A stretch of DNA of 64,000 bases from an uncultured Bacilli bacterium (GTDB lineage Bacteria > Bacillota_I > Bacilli_A > RF39 > UBA660): positions 6,044 through 70,043 of the forward strand of contig CAKOOS010000004.1 of the NCBI GenBank assembly GCA_934098735.1, read 5' to 3'. Position 1 is the stretch's first letter, and the number at the start of each line of letters is the position of its first letter. Below the pieces are notes generated by a model. It saw only the letters and a program-made list of their open reading frames with translations. It was not told where the DNA came from and searched no databases. Positions 30,101 through 52,934 of this stretch are shown one piece after another. The position numbers and the translations under genes were made by a program.

Positions 30101-31475
30101 CAACCAACATTTCATCAGTTATATTTGTAAGTTCTGTTATTATCTTGGGCAAAGGATTTGGACAAGCAATTAGTTCGTCAAATCTATCTATTATTTCATC
30201 ATTTTTTACCTTTACAGCCCCAATTTCAATCATTTGGTCTTTCCCACTACTAAGACCAGTGGTTTCAGTATCATATACAACATATTCTTGATCAAATAAA
30301 GAAAATTCTTTATTTTTAAAAACTATGTTAGATTCTACATCCACAGCATTAAGTTCTGCTCCATATAGAGCTTTAAACTTATCTTGATCTTCTTTTCCTT
30401 TATTTGCTTTTACAGTAGCATTATAAATATCTGGATAAGCTTGTAAAACATTATGATCTGTTACTGCGACAGCCTTATGTCCTAACTTTATAGCATGTTT
30501 AACTAAATCGGTAGTTTTTACAACTGAGTCCATCATACTCATCATAGTATGAGCATGAAGTTCTACTCTTTTTAAAGGAGCATCATCTTTAGTAGTTATT
30601 TCTTTAGATGGTATTGATTCAATATTTTTAGCATTTATAACCATTTGGTTTAAATAGGTATCCATCTCCATGTTTCCATGTACTCTATACCATGATCCAA
30701 CATTTAATTTTTTATTTATTTTCGTAAATTCTTCTTCATTATATTTTACTAATTTCATTAAATAACTATCTGTTTTATCACTAACTTTTAAATTCAAGAT
30801 AAATATAGGTCCTTTTTTACCTTGTCTTTCTACTACTTCTTTATTAAATATATATATTTCTACAATAATATTTTTAGTTTCTCCAAGTATATTATTTAAT
30901 TTAGTAACATTTCCGTCTTTATGAGCTCCCATTATTATTGGACTGTCTTCTTTTTTTACAGTTACACTGCTTCTTTCTTCAGCAATTTCTTCTTGAATTA
31001 CTTTACGCATATCGTCACTAATACTAATATCTATTTGATACTCTCCTAAACCATATCTTTTTAATTCTTTTACTAAACCAGCGGCCTCATGTAATAAATC
31101 ACTTTTTTCAAAATCATTTAAGACATGAAAATATATTTTATTATTATCTACTTCTACTTCACTTTTTTTAATACTTATTAAAGATGGTCTTCGAATAATA
31201 ATTTCATCTAAAAAATAATTTAAATAACTTATTACATCTTCATGAGTAATATTTTCATAAGAAAGCTCTACTTCACATTTTTTTTCACCATTAATTCCAT
31301 TCATGGCACATAAAAATAATCTATTTACGCTATTTACTGGTATTACTTTTTGATTTTTTATATAGACTAAAAATTTATTTTCATTTTTTCTTAATACTAC
31401 TTTTTCTAACTTAGCTTCATTAAATAACTCATCATTAAAACTAATACTATTAAAAAATCTTGATAACTCATTCAT
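27168..31475 (-). CDS. polC: DNA polymerase III PolC-type
   Basis: 1435 aa. Contains the OB domain, the PHP domain, a DEDDh exonuclease insert (YVVYDTETTGL) and the polymerase core. Confidence 0.95.
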   Translation of the reverse strand: MNELSRFFNSISFNDELFNEAKLEKVVLRKNENKFLVYIKNQKVIPVNSVNRLFLCAMNGINGEKKCEVELSYENITHEDVISYLNYFLDEIIIRRPSLISIKKSEVEVDNNKIYFHVLNDFEKSDLLHEAAGLVKELKRYGLGEYQIDISISDDMRKVIQEEIAEERSSVTVKKEDSPIIMGAHKDGNVTKLNNILGETKNIIVEIYIFNKEVVERQGKKGPIFILNLKVSDKTDSYLMKLVKYNEEEFTKINKKLNVGSWYRVHGNMEMDTYLNQMVINAKNIESIPSKEITTKDDAPLKRVELHAHTMMSMMDSVVKTTDLVKHAIKLGHKAVAVTDHNVLQAYPDIYNATVKANKGKEDQDKFKALYGAELNAVDVESNIVFKNKEFSLFDQEYVVYDTETTGLSSGKDQMIEIGAVKVKNDEIIDRFDELIACPNPLPKIITELTNITDEMLVGKDSEENVTKRFLEFCGDLPLVAHNAQFDISFVTSACKKYNLGEFNNTVVDTMGLARNMYPDWRNHKLSTLVKNLEVEWDEDKHHRADYDCEGTSKCFYKMLYELKHQNINTTLELEKLADKENAIKFARPFHLTVIAKNPVGLKNLFKIISLANTKYLYKGKEPKIPRTDLIDLREGLIVGSGCVNGEVFDKGYGLQDDDLMDLMNFYDYIEVQPVNCATHLIGEDKKFHNVFEYNGYVSRLVKLAKKMGKLVVATGDVHNLTPDDLIYRKVIVHQKTNGRLHPLNHKDIEVPNMYFLTTNEMLEAFSFLGEELAKEIVITNTNIIADMVEHLQIIRDKLYTPILENSAEITKEMVYNKAHEIYGDPLPKNIEERLEAELAGIIGGGYDVIYLIAEKLVKKSNEDGYFVGSRGSVGSSLVATMMGITEVNGLPPHYVCPKCKKSYFEDENGETLATIYPSGYDMPDRNCECGTKLKKEGQDMPFATFLGFKAEKVPDIDLNFSGDNQADAHNHVKVLFGEDHAYRAGTISTVAEKTAFGYVRGYCEDENIILNNIEIERIAQGCTGVKRTTGQHPGGIIVIPQYMDVFDFTPYQYPADEPDSTWYTTHFDFHAIHDNVLKLDILGHDDPTMLRYLGDTTGINIKEEIPFDDHNIISLFTSPKALGVTEEQILCKTGTLGIPEFGTNFAINMLLEIKPTHFADLVKIAGLSHGTNVWQGNVRDLIMNDVASFNEVVGCRDDIMVSLINYGLDPSRAFKISEFVRKGKAKKEPETWQEHVAYMREFSVPEWFIECCRKIEYMFPKAHACAYVMMAYRVAWFKVYYPLYYYSAFFSIRRSDFDVNAMLKGYDGIKRRLIEIKEKGFGASAKETAVADTLAVALEMLARGFTFKNIDITKSLAKTFYIDDANKCLYLPFMAVDGLGENVANKIIEERNIKPFYCIEDFANRGHVNQTTVNALRELGVFDGMPESAQLSLF

Positions 31476-31476
31476 C

Positions 31477-35396: not shown

Positions 35397-35430
35397 TCGA
35401 CGGGATTATTTATTCTCCCGTCTTTTTTAT
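35397..35430. terminator. Rho-independent terminator GACGGGA-loop-TCCCGTC followed by a T run, after rpmB
   Basis: Read from the sequence. Confidence 0.6.
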
Positions 35431-36512
35431 TTTTCTTTTGAAATACTTAATATAATTCCTACACTTATCATACTTACAAGCAAACTTGATCCTCCATAAG
35501 AAAAAAATGGTAGTGTTACACCTGTAACAGGAATTAAACCTATAACAACACAAATATTTAATAATGCTTGAATAATAATACCAAATCCTAAGCCAAAAGA
35601 AAGATATTTATAAAATAAATTTTCTGTTTTCATAGAAATACGCACAATGCGGTAAAAAAGAAAGCCAAAAAAGAAAGTTACAATTAAAATACCTAAAAAT
35701 CCAAACTCTTCAGAAATAATTGAAAAAATAAAATCTGTCTGAGGTTCTGGTAAATAAAATTGCTTTTGACGACTATTTAAAAAGCCTTGTCCTAATAAAC
35801 CTCCTGGTCCAATAGCATAAAGTGATTGTATTATTTGATACCCACTTCCTAAAGGATCTACCCAGGGATTTAAAAAAGATACTATTCTTAGCATACGATA
35901 TGGAGCCATAATTATAAGTCCTACAATTCCCAAAAGACCAAGTAATCCAATCTTAAAGAAAAAGGACATTTTTACTCCTGAAATAAATAGAATTGCAGTT
36001 AAAGTTATAACTATTACCATAGCAGTACCAAAATCTGGTTCAAGCATTATTAAAATAAAAAATATACCTATTACAAGTAAGATAGGAAATACTCCTTTTT
36101 TTATATCTTTAATTATTCTTCTGTTATTAGCTAAATATTTAGAAATATAAATAACTAACCCTATTTTAGCAAATTCGCTGGGCTGGATACCAAAACCTCC
36201 AAAACCAAACCAGCTTCTGCTTCCATTTCTTACTTGACCTAATCCTGGTATTAAAACAAGAGCTAGTAATATAAAACATATTAATAAAATTAAATTAGCT
36301 TTTTCATAATATATGTGAGGATTTATTTTTTTTAAAATAAAGACTAAAAATAGTGACATTATAAAAAAAGCACCTTGAGCTTTAACAAATTTAAAAGCAT
36401 CATTATATTTATATTGAGCCCAAACTGAACTAGCTGAATAAATCATGATAATTCCAAATACAGCTATAATAATGACTATGATTAAAAGCCATTTATCAGT
36501 CTTCTTTGGCAT
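35427..36512 (-). CDS. ftsW: FtsW/RodA/SpoVE family peptidoglycan glycosyltransferase. The likely start is MPKKTDKW.
   Basis: SEDS family polytopic membrane protein in the dcw position downstream of mraY. Confidence 0.75.
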   Translation of the reverse strand: MPKKTDKWLLIIVIIIAVFGIIMIYSASSVWAQYKYNDAFKFVKAQGAFFIMSLFLVFILKKINPHIYYEKANLILLICFILLALVLIPGLGQVRNGSRSWFGFGGFGIQPSEFAKIGLVIYISKYLANNRRIIKDIKKGVFPILLVIGIFFILIMLEPDFGTAMVIVITLTAILFISGVKMSFFFKIGLLGLLGIVGLIIMAPYRMLRIVSFLNPWVDPLGSGYQIIQSLYAIGPGGLLGQGFLNSRQKQFYLPEPQTDFIFSIISEEFGFLGILIVTFFFGFLFYRIVRISMKTENLFYKYLSFGLGFGIIIQALLNICVVIGLIPVTGVTLPFFSYGGSSLLVSMISVGIILSISKEK

Positions 36513-36568
36513 AATATCCCCCCATAAAAAAGTATGAAAAAAAAGAAGCATATATTACTATATACTTC

Positions 36569-37561
36569 TTATAACCAAACACCGTAAGTGATAGCAGCCA
36601 TTGCTAAAATAAACCCTATTACCCAAAACATTTTTATAATATCTTGTTCTTCCCATCCTAATTCTTCAAAGTGATGATGAAGTGGTGCTTTTAAAAATAC
36701 TTTTTTATTGAAATAGCGAATAGCTATTATTTGAATTAAACTACTAAGAGTTTCTACTACAAATACTCCACCAATAATAGCAAGAGAAACTTCATGTCTA
36801 GAAACAATAGCAATACTAGCTAAAGCTCCCCCTAAAGCTAAAGAGCCTAAATCTCCCATGAATATTCGAGCTGGATGAGTATTAAAAACTAAAAATCCTA
36901 CTAAAGCCCCAACTAATAAAAAACAAAAAATAGCAATTTCTTGATAGCCTTCTAGCCAACCGGCATTCCAACTAATAACTCCGTAAGCAAAAAAGGCAAT
37001 TGCTGATAAACCACCAGCCAAACCATCTAAGCCGTCAGTAATATTTACAGCATTTGTTGTTCCGACAAGTAAAAATAAAATAAATAATCCAAATGTCCAT
37101 CCTAAGTTAATATATACATTTAAGAATGATATGCTAAGTACTGGCTCTCCGCCGCCTTTCATAAATAAATAAAAGAAAACTAAAGCTATAATCATTTGGA
37201 CTAGAAATTTTGTTACTAGACTAATACCATTATTATTATGGTATTTTACTTTTAAAAAATCATCAACAAATCCAAGTAAACCATAAGCTAAGAAAACAAA
37301 TACGACGATAATTAAATTATAACTTATGGATATACTCCCTTTAATATAAAGTAATATTAAGGATACGATTACGGGAATGATGAAAATAATTCCTCCCATT
37401 GTTGGAGTTCCTTCTTTTTTTAAATGTCTTTCGCTTATTAATTTACTAACTGATTGGCCTAGATGCATTTTTTTAAAAAGAGGAACAACTATTAATCCTG
37501 TAATTAAAGATAAAATAAAGCCTAACATTAAAGCCATTGCAGCTTTAGCTAAAATTAGCAT
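36569..37561 (-). CDS. mraY: Phospho-N-acetylmuramoyl-pentapeptide transferase
   Basis: MraY motifs (NAVNITDGLDGLA, HHHFE). Confidence 0.9.
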   Translation of the reverse strand: MLILAKAAMALMLGFILSLITGLIVVPLFKKMHLGQSVSKLISERHLKKEGTPTMGGIIFIIPVIVSLILLYIKGSISISYNLIIVVFVFLAYGLLGFVDDFLKVKYHNNNGISLVTKFLVQMIIALVFFYLFMKGGGEPVLSISFLNVYINLGWTFGLFILFLLVGTTNAVNITDGLDGLAGGLSAIAFFAYGVISWNAGWLEGYQEIAIFCFLLVGALVGFLVFNTHPARIFMGDLGSLALGGALASIAIVSRHEVSLAIIGGVFVVETLSSLIQIIAIRYFNKKVFLKAPLHHHFEELGWEEQDIIKMFWVIGFILAMAAITYGVWL

Positions 37562-37638
37562 ATCCTCACCTCTTTTTTATTATACTATAATTTTATATTG
37601 CTTTTTATTTTTGATGCCTTTTTTTACATTTTTTGACA

Positions 37639-39543
37639 TTAATTAAGCATAACTACTACTGTACCATTTTCTTTAGCATACATTCCTCCACTTGGTGATT
37701 GATAAATTACATTTTCACCAGTACCACTATACTCTATTTTAAAGCCTTTTAAAACCTTTTTAGCTTCATCAACGCTTAAACCTACAACATCAGGTACTGT
37801 AACATATTTTTGATCTAACCAAGTATATTCTTTTGGTATTCCATTTGTATCTGGCTTAATATTTAAAATATCAATTGCACTTAAGAAAATATTTCGGGCA
37901 ATTGGAGCTGCTACAGTGCCCCCGTATTGAACTACCCCTTTTGCATTTTGAACAGCAACATAAACAACAATTTCTGGATCGTCCGCAGGCATAAAGCCTA
38001 TAAATGATAAAATATATTTACTAGATGAATAAACTCCATTTTCAACAGTTTGAGCTGTTCCTGTTTTTCCTCCTATTCGATAATTTTCTATATATGCATT
38101 ATGTCCTGAACCTTTAGCTACAACACTTTCTAAAGCATATTTTACCAAATCAGATGTTTCTTTACTTATGACATTTTTTTCGGCAACTGGTTCATTACTT
38201 TTAATAATTGAATTTGTTTCAGGTTCTAGATAATTTTTAACTATGTATGGTTTGTATAAAGTTCCTCCGTTTACTACAGCACTAACTGCCCTTATTTGCT
38301 GAATTGGCGTTACACTTATTCCTTGTCCAAAAGCTGTTGTTGCAAGTTCTACGTTTCCCATTTTATTTAAAGAAAATAGTATTCCAGAAGCTTCGCCATT
38401 TAAATCTATACCTGTTTTACTTCCAAAGCCAAAGTCTTTAATATAGCCCATCAATTTTTCTTTTTGAAGCATTAATCCTAAATTGACAAATCCTGGGTTA
38501 CAAGAATTTTCAACGACTTCTAAATAAGTTTGATTACCGTGGCCACCATGCTTCCAACAATGAAGTGTTGCTCCGTCAACAGTTATTGCTCCTGTATCTG
38601 TGTAACGATCTTCAAAAATATTAATAAGTTTTTCTTCAATAGCTGATGTTAAAGTAATTATTTTAAATGTTGATCCTGGTTCAAATGTCATCCATATAGG
38701 TAAATTTCTATTTATTACTTCTGTATCATAGTCTTTATATTTATTACTATTAAAATTTGGTCTACTTGACATAGCTAAAATTTCTCCGGTTTTAGGATTC
38801 ATTGCTATGGCCATAACACTATCAGGATTGTATTTGCTAACAACATTATCTAGTTCATTTTCCATGACCAGTTGTAAATCTAAATCAATAGTAAGTTCTA
38901 AAGTTATTCCACTTGTTGGTGCTTCATATATTTCTGCTAAATCAAGTTTATGACCTTTTCCATCTGAAAAATATTTTATTCCTCCATCTTCACCAGTTAA
39001 ATAATCATCATAGTAAAGCTCTAATCCAGATAAGCCCTGATTATCAATACCTACATATCCTAAAACATGACTTAAAAGTGTTTTGTATGGATAGTATCTT
39101 TTACTTTCTTTAACTAAATAAACTCCATCTAATTTTAAAGCATCTATTTTTTCGGCAATTTCATAACTTAGTCCTCTACCCTCTGGATGTACTCTTTCTA
39201 TGGATGTTTTTTTAGAAACATGTTTTAACATATCTTCGTAATCACTATTTAAAATTTCACTTAAACTCTTGGCAGTTTTTTCTTTATCTTTAATTTGATT
39301 AGGAATTACTACTAAACTTGTAGTTGTAATATTAGTAGCTAGTTCTTTTCCATTTCTATCTACGATTTTGCCTCGATCAGCAGAAATAGGAAGCTGTCTA
39401 CTCCATAAAGACTCAGCAAGTGTATTTAGTTTTTTATAAGAAAATACCTGAATATAAAATACTCTACCAATTGCTATTACTAAAATTAAAATTACAATCA
39501 AAAAAACATATCTAATTCTTGTGTGTATATTATTATAAAACAT
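37639..39543 (-). CDS. spoVD: Class B penicillin-binding protein, SpoVD/PBP2B-like, with one C-terminal PASTA domain. The start is the internal MFYNN, preceded by GAGGG; the upstream ATG at 39591 lies inside a terminator hairpin.
   Basis: Transpeptidase motifs SxxK (STFK), SxN and KTGT, plus a PASTA domain. Confidence 0.8.
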   Translation of the reverse strand: MFYNNIHTRIRYVFLIVILILVIAIGRVFYIQVFSYKKLNTLAESLWSRQLPISADRGKIVDRNGKELATNITTTSLVVIPNQIKDKEKTAKSLSEILNSDYEDMLKHVSKKTSIERVHPEGRGLSYEIAEKIDALKLDGVYLVKESKRYYPYKTLLSHVLGYVGIDNQGLSGLELYYDDYLTGEDGGIKYFSDGKGHKLDLAEIYEAPTSGITLELTIDLDLQLVMENELDNVVSKYNPDSVMAIAMNPKTGEILAMSSRPNFNSNKYKDYDTEVINRNLPIWMTFEPGSTFKIITLTSAIEEKLINIFEDRYTDTGAITVDGATLHCWKHGGHGNQTYLEVVENSCNPGFVNLGLMLQKEKLMGYIKDFGFGSKTGIDLNGEASGILFSLNKMGNVELATTAFGQGISVTPIQQIRAVSAVVNGGTLYKPYIVKNYLEPETNSIIKSNEPVAEKNVISKETSDLVKYALESVVAKGSGHNAYIENYRIGGKTGTAQTVENGVYSSSKYILSFIGFMPADDPEIVVYVAVQNAKGVVQYGGTVAAPIARNIFLSAIDILNIKPDTNGIPKEYTWLDQKYVTVPDVVGLSVDEAKKVLKGFKIEYSGTGENVIYQSPSGGMYAKENGTVVVMLN

Positions 39544-39750
39544 ATTATCCCTCGAATAATTATATGTTTTATTAAAATTAAAAAAAACCATTTTATTTAA
39601 AATGGCTCATTTAATGAATTATGTTTACTTTTTTGTTTTCCATCTTGTCATGCCAATAATTACTTGATTCAATAGTTTTATAAATTAATAATTTTTTAAA
39701 GTGCTACTTTTCCACTATAGTCTATTATTTAAATACAATTTTTAATTTTT

Positions 39751-40470: not shown

Positions 40471-40872
40471 TTAAGTATTTATCCCATTAGACTGAAAATA
40501 CACTCCAACATCATTAGCAAGTAATTCTTGTGTATATTTGATACTATCAGATAAATTTCTAGAAAATCTAGAAACTTCTTTTGTAACTATTAAATCAAAA
40601 TAGCTAGATTTAGCATCATCAATCATTTGTAAAAATTTTTTTCTTCGTTTAACAGTGCTACCGCTAATACCTTCATCTATGTAACCATTTTACAAACTTC
40701 ATCATATTGTTGTTCAGTTATTACACCTTGATCATATAATTTTTTATTTATTATTAATTCATATTCAAGGATTGTTATTCTTGGAGTTTCAAATATATAA
40801 AAATGCCTCCACTAATGGAAGTGTATGATTTTAAGATAAATCTAATTACTGATTGTATTTTATTTGACATTT
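40471..40872 (-). pseudogene. Remnant of a serine recombinase (resolvase/invertase catalytic domain), frameshifted and truncated. Frame A gives ...ETPRITILEYELIINKKLYDQGVITEQQYDEVCKMVT*. Frame B gives NGYIDEGISGSTVKRRKKFLQMIDDAKSSYFDLIVTKEVSRFSRNLSDSIKYTQELLANDVGVYFQSNGINT*.
   Basis: Hand translation of the minus strand. Frame B matches the resolvase core (D-G-SG ... R-x-x-L ... D-x-V-V-x-x-x-x-R-x-x-R ... GV-x-F). There are stops in all frames upstream, and no C-terminal recombinase or zinc-ribbon domains follow. Confidence 0.55.
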
Positions 40873-41845: not shown

Positions 41846-42379
41846 CTATTTATTTTTTCCAGTTGTGTCAATAAACTCTTTTTGTGATTCTAATGTCATT
41901 ATATCATAAAATTCAAAATCATTTTTAATCCATTTACTTTGTAAAATTTTGTTTCTGTTTAGATTTCTTTTTAACTTTTCACTTGGATCTGCTGTTAAAA
42001 TAAATGTTACATCCGGTTTAATATACCACGTTTGATCTATCATTTCTCTATATATTCTAAGTGCATTATCATAGCCGTTGTATTTACCTAATTTTAAAAA
42101 GGCATAGGAAACCGCCAAAATTGAAAGATAACTTCTTTCCATAAATACTATTTTATCATGTTTCAAAAATGATGATGCTAATATCATTCTCTCTTTCTCT
42201 ATTTCGAAGAAAATTTGTTGATTTTTTAGTTCTTCTTCTATGTTCTTTGATGGTTTTGGTGACAGTGGATGATCCATAAATTCCTCAATTATTTCGACTT
42301 TAGGAATTTTATTCAAAATTTTTGATGTAGTAGTCTTGCCAGAATTAGATGTTTCCTCTATCACATATAAATTTTTCAT
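41846..42379 (-). CDS. Deoxynucleoside kinase family P-loop protein with an atypical Walker A (EETSNSGKTT), an ERS motif (FMERSYLS) and an Arg-rich lid (LKRNLNRNK)
   Basis: The motif arrangement is characteristic of dNK/dCK/dGK-type kinases. Confidence 0.55.
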   Translation of the reverse strand: MKNLYVIEETSNSGKTTTSKILNKIPKVEIIEEFMDHPLSPKPSKNIEEELKNQQIFFEIEKERMILASSFLKHDKIVFMERSYLSILAVSYAFLKLGKYNGYDNALRIYREMIDQTWYIKPDVTFILTADPSEKLKRNLNRNKILQSKWIKNDFEFYDIMTLESQKEFIDTTGKNK

Positions 42380-42508
42380 TATATCACTACCTTTCTGTTT
42401 TATATTTTTTCATTTTAAAATTAAATATGGAATACAAAGGTCCTATATTAGATATAAATGTTGAACAATATATTTAGCCACATTTTAGCACATTAAAAAA
42501 GACTATTG

Positions 42509-44164
42509 CTAGTCTTTTAATAATTCTAAACTAATTTTTCCTTTAAATGTTTTTCCTTGATCATAATTTTGTTCTTCTCCAGTTCCATGTAATGTAAAGG
42601 AAACAGTGTAATTTTGCTTTGTATTAGGAGCTATAGCTACTTTACTTGCTAAGCGGCCACTTGTAAATGGTGCAACACTCCAATCAGCATTAAATCCACT
42701 ATAATTACTTACTACTTTGAACCAGAAATTATTGCTTTCAAAATTATTTTCTACATTAATCCAATCAATATTATAATAAAGAATTTTATCGGTATTATTT
42801 GATACACTAAATTTTATATCAGGTACTTTAGTATTTACATCATCATCTGTTTGGTCATCCGGATATAGATCTGATACTGTTACATTGTTACCATTTTCAA
42901 AAGCCACTACCAAAGCTGCGGCATCAATATTTACATTATTATCTCCAACTGTTGCTTGACCGCCTTTACCTGATGGATCAACTACATACGTACAATTGCG
43001 ATCACATTTACCATCGCCATCATCGTCAATATTAAAATCTGGTTTACCATCTTTATCAGTATCAATATTTAAATCTGGTGTTCCATCACCATTAGTATCG
43101 ATATTTAAATCTGCTTTACCATCACCATCTAAATCTATATTAATATCTGGCCATCCAGCATCATCTAAATCACAGTTTAAATCACAAATTCCATCACCAT
43201 TTTTATCTTGATTTACTTTATTTTTTAAATTTCCATTTTCATCTGGTACATTAAAGGTTGGTTTTTTATTTCCACCATAATCTATTTTTTCATCAGGCTT
43301 TTTATCGCCATTAGTATCACAGTTGACATCACAGATTCCATCACCATCTAAGTCTATATCTAATTCTTTGTCTTTGTTAACCAAATTAGAAATACAATTT
43401 TTATCACATTTACCATCATCATTAGTATCAATATTAATATCTGGAACACCATCGCCATTGGTATCAATATTTAAGTCTGGCTTTTTATCTCCATCCGTAT
43501 CAATATTTAAATCTGCTTTACCATCACCATCTAAATCTATATTAATATCTGGCCATCCATCATCATCAATATCACAGTTTAAATCACATTTGCCATCATT
43601 ATTAGTATCTTGATTTACTTTATTAAATATGCTTCCATCTTTTTTTACTACATTAAATATAGCTTTATTATTTTTCATATAATCGATGTTACGATCTGGT
43701 TTTCTATCATTATTAATATCACAATTGATATCACAAATTCCATCACCATCTAAATCTATATTTAACTCTGGTCTTCCATCATCATCTAGATCTATATTTA
43801 ATTTGGAACTTCTTATATATTTAGCTCCCATGTAAGTTGCAAAGCCACCAATAAATAAAAATGCAAGTAAGAAAAGAATTAATAGCATTCTATTTTTTTC
43901 TTTAAATTTAAAGATTAGTTTATTACCTTCTTTTATAACACATAAACTTTCCGGCAAATAAGTATCATTATCTTTATCATTAAAGACTACATTTAATACT
44001 TTTTCTACTTCTTTATTTGAAACTTTATAATTATCTTCATATATTTTATTTAATGTATCTAATATAAGTTTATCTTGTTCTTTGCTTTTTAAGAGCATAA
44101 ATTCTTTTATATTTATTACTTCTTTATTTTGTTTATACTCCTTCTTAACTTTTTCTTTTGACAT
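42509..44164 (-). CDS. Membrane-anchored protein with many thrombospondin type 3-like calcium-binding repeats (DxDxDGxxDxxC) and a C-terminal beta-rich domain
   Basis: Cytoplasmic N-terminus, one transmembrane helix (LLILFLLAFLFIGGFATYM), then repeats such as NIDLDGDGICDINCD. Confidence 0.6.
   Translation of the reverse strand: MSKEKVKKEYKQNKEVINIKEFMLLKSKEQDKLILDTLNKIYEDNYKVSNKEVEKVLNVVFNDKDNDTYLPESLCVIKEGNKLIFKFKEKNRMLLILFLLAFLFIGGFATYMGAKYIRSSKLNIDLDDDGRPELNIDLDGDGICDINCDINNDRKPDRNIDYMKNNKAIFNVVKKDGSIFNKVNQDTNNDGKCDLNCDIDDDGWPDINIDLDGDGKADLNIDTDGDKKPDLNIDTNGDGVPDINIDTNDDGKCDKNCISNLVNKDKELDIDLDGDGICDVNCDTNGDKKPDEKIDYGGNKKPTFNVPDENGNLKNKVNQDKNGDGICDLNCDLDDAGWPDINIDLDGDGKADLNIDTNGDGTPDLNIDTDKDGKPDFNIDDDGDGKCDRNCTYVVDPSGKGGQATVGDNNVNIDAAALVVAFENGNNVTVSDLYPDDQTDDDVNTKVPDIKFSVSNNTDKILYYNIDWINVENNFESNNFWFKVVSNYSGFNADWSVAPFTSGRLASKVAIAPNTKQNYTVSFTLHGTGEEQNYDQGKTFKGKISLELLKD
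42989..43765. repeat. Two tandem copies of about 400 bp (134 codons) inside the TSP3-repeat gene, each itself built of about 36-45-bp Asp-rich units
   Basis: Protein residues 134-258 and 268-392 are near-identical. The track's antisense ORFs 42996..43211 and 43323..43613 mirror this periodicity. Confidence 0.6.
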
Positions 44165-44177
44165 TTTTATCCCTCAT

Positions 44178-45266
44178 TTACTTTAAAATTGTATAAGCTT
44201 TTTTCTTTTGATGTTCAAAATCATCTAGAAAAGACACTACTGTTTTTCTAATGCTATTCATAGTTTTTTCTTTTCTTTTAGTGGCTCCCTTAAATTCTTT
44301 ATCAATTAATTTTTTAAATTCATTTTCAGTTATATTACTTCCAAAAACAAAATCATTTACTAATTTACTAATAATTGCTGAGTTGTATTCATTTACTTCT
44401 TTTTTATCATCTTTATTTAAAGCCTCATTATTTATAAAAAATGATAAATCATATAATGTTTTAATATTATCATCTTTTACTTCTTCAGTTCTTTTATCAA
44501 TTTGTGTAATTGGCTTAATATTATTCTTTTCAAGATATTCCCAAAGTTCCAATGCTTTAATAAAGTTTGGTTCTTTTAAAATAACATTTGTTTTTCTTAT
44601 AGGGCTTCGAACCGGTGAGCTTTCTTTTAAACTTTTTATAAATGTTGATGATCTAAAAGCTGAGACAATATCCCTTATATGTTCAATTCTTTCATCTAAA
44701 GAATGTCCATCTTTCGATGAATCTACAATTGTTTCTTTTTTACTGCTTAAAGATAATGTAACATTAACTTCTTCATCTTTATTTTTCATTAATCCATTAT
44801 AAGTTACTTCATTATTTACCTTAGCAAAACTTTTTTGATCAGATTCTTCTAATTTATTATTTACAAATATATAAAGATTATCTACTAAAGATTTTATAAA
44901 ACGGTTTTCATATAGGTCAACTGTTTCTTCCCGATAAACATTCAATAATTTTAAAGGAATAACCGTACCATCTTCATGAACTTCTTGAATTAAGTTAGTA
45001 TTTTGAGCCAAATGTCTAATACTTTCTTCAGTTACAACTTTTGCCTTTTCAATTGGTACGATGTTTTCTTCTTGAACAATAAATCTTCTGGGATTACGAA
45101 TTATATTATCTAAATAAGGTATGCACTCTTCAACCATATCAATCCATGATATATCACTTATTTGAGCATCTATATTTCTTTTTATGGTTAAATTAGATGA
45201 AGTTGCCCCGATAAAAGAGGCAGCTTTTTCTTTATTAAAATTATTAATGTATTCTACGATATCCAT
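44178..45266 (-). CDS. Hypothetical protein, third gene of the McrB-like operon. No identifiable nuclease motif.
   Basis: 362 aa. It starts 8 nt after the stop of the GTPase gene. Lys/Glu-rich, with no transmembrane segment. Confidence 0.5.
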   Translation of the reverse strand: MDIVEYINNFNKEKAASFIGATSSNLTIKRNIDAQISDISWIDMVEECIPYLDNIIRNPRRFIVQEENIVPIEKAKVVTEESIRHLAQNTNLIQEVHEDGTVIPLKLLNVYREETVDLYENRFIKSLVDNLYIFVNNKLEESDQKSFAKVNNEVTYNGLMKNKDEEVNVTLSLSSKKETIVDSSKDGHSLDERIEHIRDIVSAFRSSTFIKSLKESSPVRSPIRKTNVILKEPNFIKALELWEYLEKNNIKPITQIDKRTEEVKDDNIKTLYDLSFFINNEALNKDDKKEVNEYNSAIISKLVNDFVFGSNITENEFKKLIDKEFKGATKRKEKTMNSIRKTVVSFLDDFEHQKKKAYTILK

Positions 45267-45274
45267 GTTTTCAC

Positions 45275-46780
45275 CTATATCGTTTTCTTAAGTCTTAGTA
45301 AATAAGCTTTACATTCTGGAGTTTTATTTGCACCAAATAATTTTTCTAAATATTTAATTAATCCATCAATTTCATCTTTAATATATGCTAAATTTAATTG
45401 TTCAAATTTTCTTAAAATTTTATGGGCAATTAGATAATCTATAGCTGCTACTTCTTCTCCTCCACAGGCAACAAATGCTGGAACAAATTCTTTTAATTGT
45501 TTTACTATTCTATTACCAAAAGCTAAACGGAAATGATCAATAACATATCTATCTAGTTGAGCAACTTTTTCTAATGTTTCTTCTGATACTGGATGTTCTT
45601 CAGCAGATTTTTCGAAAAGTGATGATAAATAATTATAGCTTGTTTTAATTTTATCTGTATCTGGTGCTGTAAATTCTTCACACTTATCATCAATTGCAAT
45701 AGGCATTGCTCTATCATAAACTTTATCAGTAATCATAAATGTTGAGTCATCGTTGTTGATTGTACCAATATACCACATATTTTCTGGTATTTTTAGCTTT
45801 CCATCATCTAGTTTCTTAGGATCGTTTGGCCAAACATTTGGAACAAGTTCTACTACCCAGTCTTTCTTGTTAGGTAGTTCCAAGATTGATAACATTTCAG
45901 CAAAATAATATTCTACACGAGATATATTCATTTCATCTAGAAGGGTAATATATACTTCATCGTTATATTCTGCTTCATACATTTTTTCTAATATTTCAGT
46001 TTCGTTAAATTTTTTGGTAAATTCGTTAAAATAACCAAATATTTCTGTTGAATCTCTCCATGATGGTTGAACACTTGCTACAGTTGTTTCATTATCTATA
46101 AATGATCCAAAAGCATAAGCCAATGATGTTTTTCCTGTTCCTGATATACCTTCTAAAATTATTAGCTTATTTGAAGCAAATGAAGCAATAAATAAACGAA
46201 TTAAATTAATATCATAATATAGATGAAGTTTTGATGCTGAATAGTTTCTGAAGCTATCACAAAAACTTTCTAATGTAAATGTATTAGTTATTTCTTCTGG
46301 TTTCATACCATTAAACTTTTCATCAACATTACTTAATTTAAAGAATCTACTTTCTCCTTCTTTTAATTCATTTTTGATACTACCATCTTCATTGTATTCT
46401 ATTTCACCGTTTTGATTTGTTAGTTCACTAATTTTAGAATTTTGTCTTTTTAATTTTAGCACTTCATTATTTAATGATTCTATTTCTTCAATTAACATAT
46501 CTTCTTTTTTAACATTTCTTTTATATCTTATATAAGTTTTAATAGACTTATAAATTAAAAATATTATTAAACCAAATATAATTACCAAAAATATTATTGA
46601 AAATATCATGATAGCTAATCCTGCCCCAGTTAAATCACTTTTATAGTCATTTATAACTGTAATATAGTTAAGAATATTGAACATTTGAAATAATCCTTGT
46701 CCTATTCCTTTAAATATTTTAACAAATCCTTCAAAAAGTGGGGCCATAAATTTTGTAAAAAATTCTCCATACACTTCCAT
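45275..46780 (-). CDS. McrB-family AAA+ GTPase with an N-terminal transmembrane helix and a coiled-coil segment
   Basis: Walker A LILEGISGTGKTS. McrB-specific motifs VQPSWRDSTEIFGYF, LLDEMNISRVEYYFAEMLSILE (compare McrB IIDEINRANLSKVFGE) and WYIGTINNDDSTFMITDKVYDRAMPIAID (compare IIGTMNTADRS...RRF.FI). The transmembrane helix spans residues about 50-78 and the coiled coil about 90-120. Confidence 0.75.
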   Translation of the reverse strand: MEVYGEFFTKFMAPLFEGFVKIFKGIGQGLFQMFNILNYITVINDYKSDLTGAGLAIMIFSIIFLVIIFGLIIFLIYKSIKTYIRYKRNVKKEDMLIEEIESLNNEVLKLKRQNSKISELTNQNGEIEYNEDGSIKNELKEGESRFFKLSNVDEKFNGMKPEEITNTFTLESFCDSFRNYSASKLHLYYDINLIRLFIASFASNKLIILEGISGTGKTSLAYAFGSFIDNETTVASVQPSWRDSTEIFGYFNEFTKKFNETEILEKMYEAEYNDEVYITLLDEMNISRVEYYFAEMLSILELPNKKDWVVELVPNVWPNDPKKLDDGKLKIPENMWYIGTINNDDSTFMITDKVYDRAMPIAIDDKCEEFTAPDTDKIKTSYNYLSSLFEKSAEEHPVSEETLEKVAQLDRYVIDHFRLAFGNRIVKQLKEFVPAFVACGGEEVAAIDYLIAHKILRKFEQLNLAYIKDEIDGLIKYLEKLFGANKTPECKAYLLRLKKTI

Positions 46781-47850
46781 TATAATTCCTCCTTATTCTT
46801 TACAATTAATTTTAAATTCATTTTATCAAAAGCTAACTTGTTATCTAAATTATTATTTATAAATTCTTTATCTACTAGAAGTTCCATATTATTTACAAAT
46901 ATAGTACTTTCAACATTATCTGTTTTTGAAAATTCATAAATAAACTTAACATCTATATCTTTATATTCTTTAATAATATTTTGATATTTTATTTCATCTT
47001 CCCAAGGAATTAAGATTTTAACATATTCTTTAATATATTCATTATCAAAGAATTTAAGCAAACTTGATTTTTTAAAATCTTTATTAACTCTTACAACATA
47101 AGTTGGCATTTCTTTATTACTAATAAGTTCTTTTAAAATATCAAATTCTAATAAACTATAAGATATCTCATTTATTTTACTTGTGTATTCTTTTAAAACT
47201 TCAAGAGCAAGTTTTTCATCAAAATCTGTAATACCTGGTATATTATAAGAAAAATTCACTTCATAATATAATGGATTATTACTAATCATTTTATAATCAT
47301 TGTGATAATTATCAGAATTTAATGCCTCTAGAGCTTTTTTATCTTCATTTGAATTTCTTTTGATTTCATCAAATAAATCATTTATAAAATATTTATTATC
47401 TTTTATAATTAAAATTCTAGTCTTCCTTAAATATGAAAGCAAATACTTAAACTTTGCTTTAGTGTCTTGCAAATCTCCATCTATTATATTAGAAGCAAAA
47501 TCAACGTAACATGCTGTACAAATAATTACTGACATTAAAAATGTTTCATTTTTCCATGTATTAAGCATCTTCATTTGATCATGTTCTTGACAATATGAAA
47601 TAATAGATTTTAAAACAAAGTTTATATTATCATTTGAGTATTCAATGGGATTATCTTTATGAATATTATTTTGAAAGTAATAAGTTTTAGCATATATGCT
47701 TATTATGTCTTTAGCAAAATTTGCAAATTCTTTCTTACTTTTCCACATTTTATTTTCTTCGATTGTAATAATCGACTCTAGTATCTTCGTGTATTCAAGT
47801 AAATCTTTTTCTTTTTTTATCACGTATTTATCGATAACACTTAAACTCAC
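46780..47850 (-). CDS. Hypothetical protein, first gene of the McrB-like operon. GTG start, preceded by a GGTAAGGTGA Shine-Dalgarno.
   Basis: 356 aa. Its stop overlaps the ATG of the GTPase gene (ATGA). No recognisable domain. Confidence 0.5.
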   Translation of the reverse strand: MSLSVIDKYVIKKEKDLLEYTKILESIITIEENKMWKSKKEFANFAKDIISIYAKTYYFQNNIHKDNPIEYSNDNINFVLKSIISYCQEHDQMKMLNTWKNETFLMSVIICTACYVDFASNIIDGDLQDTKAKFKYLLSYLRKTRILIIKDNKYFINDLFDEIKRNSNEDKKALEALNSDNYHNDYKMISNNPLYYEVNFSYNIPGITDFDEKLALEVLKEYTSKINEISYSLLEFDILKELISNKEMPTYVVRVNKDFKKSSLLKFFDNEYIKEYVKILIPWEDEIKYQNIIKEYKDIDVKFIYEFSKTDNVESTIFVNNMELLVDKEFINNNLDNKLAFDKMNLKLIVKNKEEL

Positions 47851-47879
47851 TTCTATGTCACCTTACCTATTCTCTTTAA

Positions 47880-47909
47880 ATTATATCAAACATAAAAATA
47901 GATTGCAAT
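47880..47909 (-). promoter_or_regulatory. Promoter of the three-gene operon: -35 TTGCAA, 17-nt spacer, extended -10 TGATATAAT
   Basis: Read on the minus strand upstream of the GTG start. Confidence 0.35.
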
Positions 47910-48009
47910 AAAGTCTTTTCTTTTTTACAATTTATTTTAAACTGAACTATTTTTAGGTTGCCATTTAAAATTATTTAAGATAGAATTATAATAGAAGGAA
48001 GGAATAAAA

Positions 48010-48825
48010 ATGGAAAACAATTATGATATTGATATAGACGTTTGGAAAGGAAAAGATTTTTCTAAAAAAGCAATAAAGAATAATGATTCTTATCAAGGTA
48101 TTAATTTGGAGCAGGATTATGAAGTACAAGTTCCCGACCTTGAATCTTGGAAAAAAAGAGCTGAACAAAGAAAAGAAGATGCTGATAAACAAAGTTTCTT
48201 AGCTAATGCTTTTAATAATAGTTATAATAAAGCTCCGGTTAAGAATATTCAAACGACAAAAAGAAAACCTCTTAATTTTAAAGTTTTAGCTAAAAAAACT
48301 ATTCTAGTTGTAGCTCTTGGAGCTGGTTTAAAAGTTGGTGTTCCTGCTGTTAAAGATTTTGCTAAAGAAAAAATTGCTATTGAAAAAACTCTTGATACTA
48401 CAACTACTCAATTTGTTGGGTATGATAGTAAAACGCATCAACGCACTTGGGATTATAAAAATTTAAATGAATCTATGAGCGATGTACTTAATAAAAACAA
48501 AGAATATGATATTGATACAAGAATATATGGTTTTTATGAAGGACTAGAAGCATATCATAAAGATGAATATATGGATAAGCTTTTTAATTGGTTAAATCAA
48601 GTTGTAAGTAGTAATACAAATAATTTTACACCAGAGGAAATAAATGCATGTTGTCATGAAACTTTTCAAGAATACTTAGACAGCAAAGGATTATCTAAAA
48701 AAGATTATATAACTGTTATGAATAAAATAATTAATGCTTATGCTAATGAAGGCGTAGCAGAAGATAAAGTTGAAGATCTTTTAGCAAAACTTAATGAAAA
48801 TACCTTAAACGGAGGTGCAAGATAA
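48010..48825 (+). CDS. Hypothetical single-pass membrane protein, divergent from the McrB-like operon
   Basis: 271 aa with a transmembrane segment ILVVALGAGLKVGVPAV and an AGGAAGGA Shine-Dalgarno. Confidence 0.4.
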   Translation: MENNYDIDIDVWKGKDFSKKAIKNNDSYQGINLEQDYEVQVPDLESWKKRAEQRKEDADKQSFLANAFNNSYNKAPVKNIQTTKRKPLNFKVLAKKTILVVALGAGLKVGVPAVKDFAKEKIAIEKTLDTTTTQFVGYDSKTHQRTWDYKNLNESMSDVLNKNKEYDIDTRIYGFYEGLEAYHKDEYMDKLFNWLNQVVSSNTNNFTPEEINACCHETFQEYLDSKGLSKKDYITVMNKIINAYANEGVAEDKVEDLLAKLNENTLNGGAR

Positions 48826-49061
48826 TGGAAGAAGTAGATGTTATAACTTTAAATGATGGTGATTACATTATAACTGATGAAATTGATATTAATAATGTAA
48901 AATATTATTATTTAACTAAAGAAGATGATATTGCTAAATTTTGTATTAGAAAAATAAATATTATAAATAATGAGAAGTATTTAGTTAGTTTAGATAGTCA
49001 GGAAGAATTTGATAAAGCTTTACTTAGTTTTATTGAAAAAAATAAAGATATTGCAAAATAA
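48825..49061 (+). CDS. DUF1292-like small acidic protein, paralog of 54344..54610. Its start is overlapped by the upstream stop.
   Basis: VITLNDGDYIITDEI...KYYYL...LVSLDSQEEFDKAL resembles the DUF1292 pattern. Confidence 0.45.
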   Translation: MEEVDVITLNDGDYIITDEIDINNVKYYYLTKEDDIAKFCIRKINIINNEKYLVSLDSQEEFDKALLSFIEKNKDIAK

Positions 49062-49098
49062 AAAAGAAATTTGTAAAACGCAAATTTCTTTTTTATTT
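49061..49098. terminator. Bidirectional terminator AGAAATTTG-loop-CAAATTTCT flanked by A and T runs, at the island boundary
   Basis: Read from the sequence. Confidence 0.5.
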
Positions 49099-51195
49099 AT
49101 TTAATTCAACACTTAAAACAGTATTTTCTTTATCAATTATTGTTCCAGGGGCAATACTCTGGCTTGTTACATATCCATATCCCGAGTACTCCAATTTTAT
49201 ACCTAAAAGATTAGCAAATGTCTCAACTTCGTTAAGACTCCAGCCTTGTAAATTTTCCATTGCATATTCTGTAGCATTTGTTAGAAGAAATACTTTCCCT
49301 CCAGATAAAATGGTTTTGTTTTTTAATGGGTATTGATTTGTTATATATTTACCATTACCAAGAACTATAGCATTTATTTTATTTTCTTTTAAAGTATTTG
49401 TGACAAATTCTGTTTCTTTACTAATATAATTATCCAAAGTAATTAATTTTGTTTTATCTACATCTGTTTTGGTTTCGGTTAGTTTTGCATAACTTGCTAT
49501 TTCCTCAACTGCTGTTGTAATTACTCTAGCCCATGATCCTAAATTTGTTTCTGGTTTTTTTCCAACTACATAAACTATATATTTTGGATCATCTGTTGGA
49601 AATATGCCAGCAAAAGATTTTATGTAATCATAAGTTCCACTTAAATATCCGCCACTAGGTGATGCTATTTGGGCTGTACCTGTTTTCCCCATGATGCTCA
49701 CATTATTTACTTGCCATACTTTATTTACTTCAATAACCTTTTTCATTAGTTCTTGCATTTTAGAAACAGTTGAACTACTATAAACTTTTTCAACTACTTC
49801 TCTTCCACCCTTATAAGTTATATTTCCATCTTGATCTACTATTTTATCTACTATATAAGGTTTTATTGTTGAGCCATTATTTGTCATCGAACTTAAGGCT
49901 TCCAGCATTTGAATTGGAGTAATACTTACACCTTGACCAAATGATGCATTAGAAAGTTCTGATTGATATCTAAAACTTATATCTCCTTTTGCTTCATTGG
50001 ATAATTCTATTCCTGTTTTTTGACCAAAACCAAGATTATTATAATAGTTAGTAAGTTTATTTACACCAAGTCTTAAAGCTAAAATGGTAGCTGCAACATT
50101 TGAAGAATGAGCAAATCCTAAATCAAAGTCTATTTCACCCCATCCACTTCGAGTTGCATCCCTAATAATGGTTCCATCATCTAGAGTATATGAACCTGAT
50201 TTAAAAGTCTCAGCTCCATTATATAGATTTTCTTCAATAGCTGATGCAAAAGAAAATATTTTCATTACAGATCCTGGTTCATATTGGTAACTTACTAAAG
50301 GATTCATATAGCTTTTAATTGTATTAGTATCATTTGGGTTAAAGTTAGGACTTGTACTACTTGCCACAATTGCCCCAGTTTTAGCATCCATTACGGTAAA
50401 CGATGCCCAGTCTGTATTAAAGTCATTTTGCATATTTGATACTGCTTTTTCAGCAATAAGCTGGATATTACTATCAATCGTTAAATATATGTCTGATCCA
50501 TTTTGGGCTTTTTTGGTTTCAGAAGGCGTATTTGGAATTTGATAATTACTTGATGTATATTTTAAATACTTAGTATAACCATTTGTCCCAGATAGTATTT
50601 CATCATAATATCCTTCGATACCTAATTCTCCAGTTAGCTTTCCGTCTTTATTTTCTTTTGCATATCCTACTATATAAGAAGCAAAAGTGGCTTTACTGTA
50701 ATATCTTTTTTTAGAGTTGCTAATAAAGCTTATACCAGGTAATTCTAGTTTTTCTATTTGAGCTTTAACAACTTCTGTTATTCCTCTTCCACCAGGCCCT
50801 AGTTCTACTTGGTAGGCATCTTTATTTAATAATGCAAGTAAACGTTCTTTAGTCATATTTATAATCGGAAATAAAAGTTCTGCTGTTTTTTCTTTATCCA
50901 CTACATGTTTTGGATTGCTGGGATCGGTGGTCCTAGATTCACTTAAGTAGGCAATTACGGTGTAAGAGTTTACTGTCGTAGCAAGTTCTTCACCATTAAC
51001 ATCAAAAATATTTCCACGGCTTGCATATAATGTTTTTTCAACCGTAGCAATTGATGCAGCCTTTTCTTTTAATGATATTCCATCTACTTTGTCACTTAAA
51101 ACGACATAAGAAAGTTTAATAATTATTGCCATAAATAAAAGAGCAACAATTAAAATAATAAATCTTGATACTTTAACAGTTACTCCTTTTTTCAT
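49093..51195 (-). CDS. pbpB: Class B penicillin-binding protein PBP2B/FtsI type with two C-terminal PASTA domains
   Basis: Transpeptidase motifs (SVMK, SSN, KTGT). It follows ftsL in the dcw order. Confidence 0.85.
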   Translation of the reverse strand: MKKGVTVKVSRFIILIVALLFMAIIIKLSYVVLSDKVDGISLKEKAASIATVEKTLYASRGNIFDVNGEELATTVNSYTVIAYLSESRTTDPSNPKHVVDKEKTAELLFPIINMTKERLLALLNKDAYQVELGPGGRGITEVVKAQIEKLELPGISFISNSKKRYYSKATFASYIVGYAKENKDGKLTGELGIEGYYDEILSGTNGYTKYLKYTSSNYQIPNTPSETKKAQNGSDIYLTIDSNIQLIAEKAVSNMQNDFNTDWASFTVMDAKTGAIVASSTSPNFNPNDTNTIKSYMNPLVSYQYEPGSVMKIFSFASAIEENLYNGAETFKSGSYTLDDGTIIRDATRSGWGEIDFDLGFAHSSNVAATILALRLGVNKLTNYYNNLGFGQKTGIELSNEAKGDISFRYQSELSNASFGQGVSITPIQMLEALSSMTNNGSTIKPYIVDKIVDQDGNITYKGGREVVEKVYSSSTVSKMQELMKKVIEVNKVWQVNNVSIMGKTGTAQIASPSGGYLSGTYDYIKSFAGIFPTDDPKYIVYVVGKKPETNLGSWARVITTAVEEIASYAKLTETKTDVDKTKLITLDNYISKETEFVTNTLKENKINAIVLGNGKYITNQYPLKNKTILSGGKVFLLTNATEYAMENLQGWSLNEVETFANLLGIKLEYSGYGYVTSQSIAPGTIIDKENTVLSVELNK

Positions 51196-51215
51196 TTTTC
51201 TTTATCTCCTTATTT

Positions 51216-51524
51216 TTAATCAACAGATTTTATATTACTATTATTATACGACAAACCATATTCTTCAGCAACATTTTGAATATTCTCAAGACTAGCCAGT
51301 TCATCAACTTGCATTGACAAACTTTGATTTACTAATTCTTGCTTTTCAATATTTTTTTTGATTTTTTCGACTTCATTATTAGTTTCAGATAAAAGAGATG
51401 ATGTGTAAACATTAAACATTGGTATTGCTAATACTAAAAATAATAGCAATCCATACATCATTTTTTCTCCTTTTAGTAATTTAACTTTTTTACTCTTTTT
51501 AGCCATAAAATCAAATCCTTTCAA
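51216..51524 (-). CDS. ftsL: Cell division protein FtsL
   Basis: Small bitopic protein with a coiled coil, located between rsmH and pbpB. Confidence 0.55.
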   Translation of the reverse strand: MKGFDFMAKKSKKVKLLKGEKMMYGLLLFLVLAIPMFNVYTSSLLSETNNEVEKIKKNIEKQELVNQSLSMQVDELASLENIQNVAEEYGLSYNNSNIKSVD

Positions 51525-52422
51525 TTATTCTTAATTTTGCACTTCTACTTCGAGAATTTTCTTCTAATTCTTCTTCTTTAGGAAGAATTGGTTTTTTATT
51601 TATTAATTTTATTAAAGGTTTATATTCTTCAGGTATTTCAATTAAACCTTTAACAAATTCATCTACTTCGCTATTTTTCTTAAATATATTTTTTACTATT
51701 CTATCTTCTAGTGAGTGAAAAGTTATAACTAATAACCTTCCTCCCTTTTTTAACTTATTTATTGCTTTAGGAAGTATTTCTTCTAAAACTTTTAGTTCTT
51801 GATTTACTTCAATTCTAAGAGCCTGAAATATCTTTCTTTCTGGATGATTCTTGTAAAAATAATTAGCTCCGGTCGCATTTTTTATTGTTTCAACAAGTTC
51901 AAGTGTTGTATTTATATTATCTTTATTATTTTTAACTTTTCGAGCTATTACTTTACTCATCTTTTCTTCTCCATAAGTAAAAAAGATATTAGCTAATTTT
52001 TCTTCACTATAGTTTTCTATTATGTCTTTTGCTGTTATTCCTTTGCTTGACATACGCATATCTAAAGGACCATCATGCATAAAAGAAAAACCTCTTTCTT
52101 GATCATCAATTTGGGGTGAAGAAAAACCTAAATCAAATATTATTCCATCAACAGAATCGATATTGTATTCATTTAATTTTTCGATCATCTGATTAAAATT
52201 AACATTAAATATTTTAAAATTAGAACCTATTTTAGATAGTTCTTCTTCAGAATACATAACAGCCTTAGGGTCTTGATCAAAGCCATATAAAAAACCTTTT
52301 GGAATTCTTTTTAATATTTCTTTAGAATCTCCGGCGTACCCTACGGTGGCATCAACATATATCCCATCTTCTTTAATGTTAAGATTTTCAATTAATTCTT
52401 GTTTTAAAACACTATAATGCAT
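51511..52422 (-). CDS. rsmH: 16S rRNA (cytosine1402-N4)-methyltransferase RsmH. The likely start is MHYSVLKQE.
   Basis: YVDATVGYAGDS SAM motif and DLGFSSPQID. Confidence 0.85.
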   Translation of the reverse strand: MHYSVLKQELIENLNIKEDGIYVDATVGYAGDSKEILKRIPKGFLYGFDQDPKAVMYSEEELSKIGSNFKIFNVNFNQMIEKLNEYNIDSVDGIIFDLGFSSPQIDDQERGFSFMHDGPLDMRMSSKGITAKDIIENYSEEKLANIFFTYGEEKMSKVIARKVKNNKDNINTTLELVETIKNATGANYFYKNHPERKIFQALRIEVNQELKVLEEILPKAINKLKKGGRLLVITFHSLEDRIVKNIFKKNSEVDEFVKGLIEIPEEYKPLIKLINKKPILPKEEELEENSRSRSAKLRIIERI

Positions 52423-52852
52423 ATTTATCACCTTCAAATAAATGTTCTGCAACTTCTGATATTTTAGCACTGTTATCATTTAAAAATTCTGCAAACATTT
52501 TTTCACTCCATATCTCAATATGGTCATTTGCGCCGATTATGACACATTCTTTATTTAAATCGGCGTAACCAACCAATGGGGAGGTAATATTTATTCGACC
52601 ACTTTTGTCGAACTCGCAAACAGTGGCTCCCGAAAAGAAAAATCTAGTAAATGTTCTGGCGTCTTTTTTTGTGAAAGGTAGAGTTTCTAACTGGCTAACT
52701 ATTTTTTCCCATTTTGAACTAGGATAAATATATAGACATTTTTCAATTCCTTTAGTAATTATAAAATTACTTCCTAATTCTTCACGATATTTCGTTGGTA
52801 TAACTAGTCGGCCTTTATCATCTATATTGTGATGAAATTCCCCCAGCAACAT
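52412..52852 (-). CDS. mraZ: Transcriptional regulator MraZ. The likely start is MLLGEFHH.
   Basis: Duplicated DxxxR motifs (DDKGRLVIP and DKSGRINI). Confidence 0.85.
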   Translation of the reverse strand: MLLGEFHHNIDDKGRLVIPTKYREELGSNFIITKGIEKCLYIYPSSKWEKIVSQLETLPFTKKDARTFTRFFFSGATVCEFDKSGRINITSPLVGYADLNKECVIIGANDHIEIWSEKMFAEFLNDNSAKISEVAEHLFEGDKYAL

Positions 52853-52934
52853 GTTATCTCCCACTTTCTCCCACAGTATGCCACTGTCTATAATTATAAT
52901 AGCAAATAAAGAAAAAAAAGTAAATATTATTTAT

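Follow-up and report, generated by a model that had tools for sequence, protein, structure and literature searches.

Within a 64-kb stretch of contig CAKOOS010000004.1 from an uncultured Bacilli bacterium (assembly GCA_934098735.1; the whole 64,000 nucleotides are referred to below as the window), we examined an operon of four genes, here termed A, B, C and D, whose second gene encodes a GTPase of the McrB family with a predicted membrane anchor. In order of transcription, the genes are:

46780..47850, minus strand: gene A, 356 aa, GTG start behind AAGGTGA; predicted cytoplasmic protein
45275..46780, minus strand: gene B, 501 aa; McrB-family AAA+ GTPase, assigned by its signature to the NxD branch
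44178..45266, minus strand: gene C, 362 aa; predicted McrC homologue reduced to its N-terminal DUF2357 domain
42509..44164, minus strand: gene D, 551 aa; fourth gene of the operon

These four genes form a tightly coupled operon. A previous interpretation that had used only the DNA letters (the sequence-only reading) described an operon of three co-directional reading frames, A, B and C; all three are present on the minus strand with the sizes claimed, but the unit extends to D, which is preceded by a GAGGGA ribosome-binding site, begins 13 nt downstream of the end of C and follows C in 20 related loci. The A/B junction proved to be TAATG, an overlap of 1 nt and not the 4-nt ATGA overlap first described, while the 8-nt gap was found as claimed between B and C. 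The GC content of the cassette (0.22–0.29) is the same as that of the remaining window. For the promoter that had been ascribed to the operon, the following site was located:

47880..47908, minus strand: candidate sigma-70 promoter, TTGCAA-17-TG-n-TATAAT, with 10 of 12 hexamer matches plus the TG

The site itself stands, ~30 nt ahead of the start of gene A and inside a 159-nt divergent intergenic region, but in such AT-rich DNA (25% GC) sites of this kind occur at chance frequency (48 found, 48.9 expected from shuffles), so that the match alone is weak evidence for a promoter. A terminator scan of 42000–48300 gave no terminator-like site that would mark the 3' end of the operon.

For characterization of the GTPase, a combination of PDB, PADLOC and family-profile searches and an alignment of 25 diverse homologues (identity down to 33%) was used. 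The following features were assigned to gene B:

45665..46273, minus strand: GTPase core, residues ~170–372, from invariant columns and alignment to E. coli McrB
46124–46150, minus strand: Walker A, from invariant columns in the alignment
45926–45943, minus strand: Walker B (LLDEMN), from invariant columns in the alignment
45740–45757, minus strand: NxD signature (N342, D344), from invariant columns in the alignment
46544..46618, minus strand: predicted transmembrane helix, residues ~55–79, hydropathy 3.3
46415..46507, minus strand: predicted short coiled-coil segment, residues ~92–122, heptad-like EDMLIEEIESLNNEVLKLKRQNSKISEL, with weak ZapB and DUF6377 matches

The motifs on which the sequence-only reading had based its assignment are all present, namely GISGTGKTS at residues 211–219, LLDEMNISRVEYYFAEM, and WYIGTINNDDST...DRAMPIAID. 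Against PDB sequences, B matched E. coli McrB (6hz4, E = 7e-5) over residues 194–359, a region that spans the Walker A, Walker B and signature segments. Residues G211, G214, G216, K217, T218, D282, N342 and D344 are invariant in the alignment; the signature of B reads GTINNDDST, and position 345 is occupied by D, E or Q. A major non-canonical branch of the McrB GTPases has been defined by NxD, usually then D or E (Bell et al., eLife 2024, PMC11090510), and by its sequence B belongs to this branch. A weak match to AAA_5 (E = 0.004) fell under the cutoff of that family. The best PADLOC match was to the candidate-system protein PDC-M26A (E = 8e-41, profile positions 314–436 of 724); of the full PDC-M26 component set only B is represented, A, C and D matching nothing. 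When 1.84 billion representative sequences were scanned, 8,240 clusters (50% identity) were homologous to B at E<=1e-3 and 736 at E<=1e-30.

The first 170 residues of B consist of an amphipathic segment, the transmembrane helix and the coiled coil, the latter two as the sequence-only reading had claimed, and matched no DNA-binding family in the profile scans. There is a single strong hydrophobic segment (residues 57–75, mean Kyte–Doolittle hydropathy 3.3 in a 19-residue window), followed by the basic stretch KSIKTYIRYKRNVKK; by the positive-inside rule, the GTPase should therefore face the cytoplasm.

Gene C had been thought to have no recognisable relationship to McrC. Its N-terminal half, however, matches Pfam DUF2357 (PF09823, residues 52–146, E = 4e-12, score 46 bits, cutoff 23.3), and the same precomputed match is present in all 120 of the C homologues listed. 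DUF2357 is the N-terminal domain of McrC, which enters the McrB ring and stimulates GTP hydrolysis (PMC11090510). Among 53 diverse homologues, conservation extends over residues ~40–250 and then collapses, leaving residues 250–362 unconserved. The AlphaFold2 (AF2) model of C is poor (mean predicted local distance difference test score, pLDDT, 53); at this low confidence it shows a helical bundle, a long beta-hairpin (146–181) and a terminal helix of 48 residues (314–361, pLDDT 57–74), with only helices after the hairpin and no alpha/beta nuclease module. A nuclease in C was rejected on the strength of the absent family match, the unconserved C-terminus and the helical model. Judged by its profile match, conservation and predicted fold, C is an McrC without its nuclease domain. 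More direct comparisons with McrC were negative: the C profile found no McrC among PDB sequences, Foldseek of the poor model against the PDB returned only meaningless matches, and comparison of the C family with E. coli McrC by hhalign was not significant and aligned only the DtYENRFI / DTLANRII motif. One C homologue, P0137, bears the Joint Genome Institute name 'peptidase S26B, signal peptidase' despite its DUF2357-only content; the name was probably carried over from the usual neighbour.

Gene A encodes a protein with a helical N-terminal half and a C-terminal beta/alpha half that is EAL-like by predicted structure:

46783..47313, minus strand: predicted EAL-like (TIM-barrel-like) region of gene A, residues ~180–356

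No family could be assigned to A in Pfam, NCBIfam or PADLOC, and its distribution is narrow (263 matches). The AF2 model has a mean pLDDT of 57 and is confident only in the C-terminal ~100 residues. Its best structural matches were the degenerate EAL receptors LapD, FimX and YdiV, and the A-family profile also matched a designed TIM barrel (E = 3e-5). None of 43 A members matched the EAL family PF00563 at E up to 10. Almost no polar residues are conserved across 43–47 diverse members, Y9 being the sole nearly invariant residue, and neither catalytic nor cyclic di-GMP (c-di-GMP)-binding residues were found conserved in the family alignment. We read A as a helical N-domain joined to what is predicted to be a strongly degenerate EAL-like domain, for which a role as adaptor or sensor is likelier than one as enzyme. 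As a candidate nuclease A was rejected: a weak ERCC4 match (E = 0.04) appeared in only 2 of the 43 members, and the family conserves neither acidic residues nor lysines. On a metagenome contig of the same species (L001, 8941–10001), where B is 100% identical, A is split into open reading frames of 137 and 220 aa; the split is either a frameshift or an assembly error and, if real, hints that A may be dispensable.

Gene D has a conserved, predicted cytoplasmic N-domain (residues 1–92), a transmembrane segment (93–115), a motif region (~120–395) and a conserved C-terminal domain (~400–551). The motif region contains 13 DxDxDG motifs, of calcium-binding type, and 6 CDxNC motifs. The underlying repeats lie at 43001–43769, where 36-nt arrays (43007–43150 and 43412–43585) are set within a 402-nt duplication (1.9 copies, 80% match), and D varies in length between 416 and 698 aa among relatives. 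Over its last 44 columns, the D alignment is weakly similar to a family of secreted neighbours in sister loci (hhalign probability 78%). A, C and D are not paralogues of one another, as hhalign was negative for every pair and the BLAST cluster that joined them came from low-complexity K/E-rich tails.

Family profile scans assigned no nuclease family to A, C or D, in agreement with the sequence-only reading, which had seen no nuclease in A or C. The cryptic nuclease or pore-forming fold for which it had suggested searching the partners of B was not found either, A, C and D showing no nuclease, HEPN, PLD, TIR or pore-forming signature.

To place the cassette among its relatives, species-representative genomes were scanned; at least 598 relatives were confirmed, and 80 loci were retained for analysis of open reading frames and hidden Markov model matches. 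A SipW-type signal peptidase core, confirmed by TIGR02228 above cutoff, lies near B in 63 of these 80 loci. Three layouts could be distinguished. The first, that of the window, is A-B-C-D, and most such loci are without SipW; in the second, a SipW gene and two secreted proteins precede A-B-C, which is followed by SipW and further secreted proteins; in the third, found in Clostridia, secreted proteins and SipW are followed by B and a long coiled-coil C of 680–1000 aa, with no A. The sequence-only reading had proposed to check whether the arrangement is conserved in other genomes; among the loci from Bacilli, tight spacing of A-B-C recurs. In the small neighbours, a transmembrane segment with a TasA/CalY-type 'AWF' motif lies at the N-terminus, and these proteins match the SipW-cognate model TIGR04088 at or near cutoff; none matched the TasA Pfam family.

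In a random sample of 150 neighbours drawn from 25 related loci, the commonest Pfam families were signal-peptidase families and EAL, and no defence family recurred in the PADLOC search. Of the 80 loci, 18, all Clostridial, encode a stand-alone EAL protein (PF00563, E = 2e-45) and 54 encode A; no locus has both. The stand-alone proteins (L047, 2166–2942, and those of 17 other Clostridial loci) are degenerate: 'EAL' has become S-x-R and the catalytic lysine is lost, with DDFG kept, which suggests from sequence that they are receptors rather than phosphodiesterases. A sortase (PF04203, E = 1e-12) and a Cna_B-domain protein were also seen among neighbours of related clusters (L024, 2542–3306, and one other sampled neighbour) and add to the cell-surface theme. 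In the window itself, the single match to a SipW profile was a low-complexity artefact, and no GGDEF domain was found.

The architecture had been put forward as undescribed, but a group of this kind has been named. CoCoPALM is introduced by Bell et al. (PMC11090510) in one paragraph, with its analysis deferred to a later paper, as an NxD McrB GTPase with an FtsB-like transmembrane/coiled-coil segment, linked to signal-peptidase proteins; EAL, c-di-GMP, TasA and SipW are not mentioned there, and beyond that paper and the PADLOC preprint the literature library searched contained nothing that follows up CoCoPALM or PDC-M26. The cassette shares with CoCoPALM an NxD GTPase fused to an N-terminal transmembrane helix and coiled coil, a DUF2357 partner, its occurrence in Bacillota and, in sister loci, signal-peptidase genes adjoining the core. 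With regard to coiled coils in both partners, B has one and C only the predicted terminal helix, of moderate pLDDT. The window differs in having the membrane-anchored D with its DxDxDG repeats and no signal peptidase in its 64 kb or SipW-type secreted protein, in the extra upstream gene A with its EAL-like predicted fold, and in a short C, which has a single terminal helix in place of the long coiled coil of its Clostridial counterparts. The window form is thus a SipW-less, D-bearing variant of the named CoCoPALM group and not an undescribed class.

Other known systems are more distant. With canonical McrBC (E. coli EcoKMcrBC; 6hz4, 6ut6) the cassette has in common the AAA+ GTPase core with Walker A, Walker B and an asparagine/aspartate signature, a partner with the ring-activating N-terminal domain, and adjacent coupled genes; unlike it, the cassette has no DNA-binding domain in B, no PD-(D/E)xK nuclease in C and no association with restriction-modification genes, is predicted to be membrane-anchored, reads NxD instead of NxxD, and includes two extra genes. 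CoCoNuT systems belong to the same NxD branch, have coiled-coil fusions and often have McrC homologues without an active nuclease, but they are always equipped with nucleases, of HEPN or another type, and with domains predicted to bind RNA, and none of these was found in the cassette. LapD, FimX and YdiV, the best structural matches to the A model, have EAL domains without catalytic activity, which link a signal to the retention of adhesins, the assembly of pili or the control of flagella; A differs from them in lacking PF00563 sequence membership, conserved c-di-GMP-binding residues and GGDEF, HAMP or PilZ partners. Finally, the sipW-tasA and sipW-bsaA biofilm-fibre operons of Bacillus and Clostridium (PMC11580942) resemble the sister loci, which pair SipW with several small 'AWF' secreted proteins, but those operons have no McrBC-like GTPase, and the window has no SipW.

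We favour, with a probability of roughly 0.55, the reading that the locus is a nuclease-free McrBC derivative of CoCoPALM type whose output is exerted on a surface structure rather than through cleavage of nucleic acid; the cassette most likely acts at the cell surface. In such a machine, the transmembrane helix and short coiled coil would hold B at the inner face of the membrane, where, by analogy to cryo-EM work on McrBC (PMC6624300, PMC7680126), it may form a tethered hexamer into whose ring the beta-hairpin of C inserts to set the rate of GTP hydrolysis. A would provide the regulatory input as a sensor or adaptor in the manner of LapD, FimX and YdiV, responding to c-di-GMP or to a partner protein; this role is proposed from the structural similarity and from the way in which A and stand-alone EAL genes complement each other in distribution. 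D would be bitopic, displaying a stalk of DxDxDG repeats and the conserved terminal domain on the cell surface. The output, for which genomic context is the ground, would be control or assembly of a surface structure, represented by D in the window and by SipW-processed secreted proteins in sister loci. A more specific version, in which a restriction-enzyme motor has been converted into a membrane GTPase machine for SipW-dependent (TasA-like) fibres or anchored adhesins, gated by a degenerate EAL sensor and possibly by c-di-GMP, with D replacing the peptidase and secreted subunits in the window, is tentative and rather doubtful as a whole.

Several observations weigh against the surface reading. 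Function is drawn from context alone, and the link to surface fibres rests on sister loci, since the 64-kb window contains no SipW, SipW-type secreted protein or canonical EAL gene. The likeness of D to the secreted neighbours is weak (78% over 44 columns). That of A to EAL is structural only, with no conserved ligand-binding residues, and an hhalign comparison of the A family with the EAL family of the neighbours was not significant; with mean pLDDT values of 57 for A and 53 for C, the AF2 models are of poor overall quality. That A and EAL exclude each other is not an independent test, since the pattern tracks phylogeny (Bacilli for A, Clostridia for EAL). Lastly, the best PADLOC match of B is a candidate defence protein, and its family descends from restriction systems.

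These last points also belong to the best-surviving alternative, a defence or abortive-infection system of the kind that the sequence-only reading had proposed. Under this explanation infection would be sensed by the tethered McrB GTPase, with A, C or D serving as a non-nuclease effector that acts, for example, by membrane disruption. To the McrBC ancestry of B and its match to PDC-M26A can be added the predicted defensive role of the sister clade CoCoNuT, and the rapid evolution of A and variable repeat number of D, both often seen in conflict systems. A recombinase fragment also lies nearby:

40471..40626, minus strand: 51-aa Resolvase fragment (serine recombinase catalytic domain; PF00239, E = 1e-6, profile positions 55–105 of 145)

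The recombinase remnant reported earlier is therefore real, but the island said to carry it is weakly founded: the fragment lies three genes and 1.9 kb beyond D, in a stretch that varies between related genomes, the GC content is ordinary, and the cassette itself is syntenic in related species. Contextual support for defence was likewise not obtained, as A, C and D match no PADLOC model and show none of the effector signatures listed above, and the recurrent partners in related loci are not defence families but SipW, proteins with SipW-type signal peptides, EAL proteins and a sortase. We consider an undescribed anti-phage system unlikely.

The position of the cassette raises a further alternative. 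In the species and its close relatives (B identity 77–89%), the gene order is mraZ-rsmH-ftsL, a penicillin-binding protein (PBP) gene, two small divergent genes, A-B-C-D, variable genes, and then PBP-mraY-ftsW; because this order is syntenic, the cassette is taken to be chromosomal and inherited in place. In the window, the two halves of the division and cell wall (dcw) cluster lie at 35427–39591 and 49093–52864 and comprise mraZ-rsmH-ftsL-PBP and PBP-mraY-ftsW, and the ~9.5 kb between them hold the cassette together with NUDIX, histidine-phosphatase and deoxynucleoside kinase-like genes. An accessory machine of cell division or the cell wall, with an FtsB-like anchor placing the GTPase at the divisome, would explain this site between ftsI-like PBP genes and mraY-ftsW, and Bell et al. 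(PMC11090510) indeed call the N-terminal fusion FtsB-like. B gave no DivIC or FtsB Pfam match, however, at E up to 1, and the stretch from D to the second PBP differs between relatives. The linkage is moreover confined to the closest clade (B identity >=77%); neither the more distant A-B-C-D loci nor any locus with SipW is found at this position, for which reason the dcw site is taken as synteny and not as function. A divisome role is accordingly improbable.

That the locus encodes an ordinary Type IV restriction enzyme of the McrBC kind, or else a MoxR-type AAA+ chaperone with a housekeeping role, is scarcely credible: B does align with E. coli McrB and weakly with AAA_5, and C has the McrC N-terminal domain, but the nuclease form is refuted at sequence and profile level by a B without DNA-binding N-domain and a C without PD-(D/E)xK, and MoxR is contradicted by the McrB-specific NxD signature, the DUF2357 partner and the absence of a VWA gene.

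McrBC-type GTPases are treated as immunity proteins, and tools such as PADLOC flag B as a defence candidate. A large nuclease-free branch (the 8,240 clusters and at least 598 related stretches given above) nevertheless sits with signal peptidases, secreted surface proteins and EAL proteins. If the surface reading is true, the branch would clearly exemplify an immune motor taken over for building the cell surface; the uncharacterised partners of the SipW-type fibre operons of gut Firmicutes would gain a name, and surveys of microbiomes would have reason not to score loci of this kind as defence systems. A directly testable handle is offered by the EAL link, which is absent from the one paper that names the clade (PMC11090510).

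Two further features of the window were noted. The divergent gene pair at 48010–49061 (plus strand), which accompanies A in close relatives (L004, L008, L010 and L014), encodes a 271-aa protein with one transmembrane segment and no family and a 78-aa protein with a weak DUF1292 match. At 27168–34326 (minus strand), back-to-back genes for PolC-like (1435 aa) and DnaE-like (949 aa) DNA polymerase III alpha subunits were identified from their translations only.

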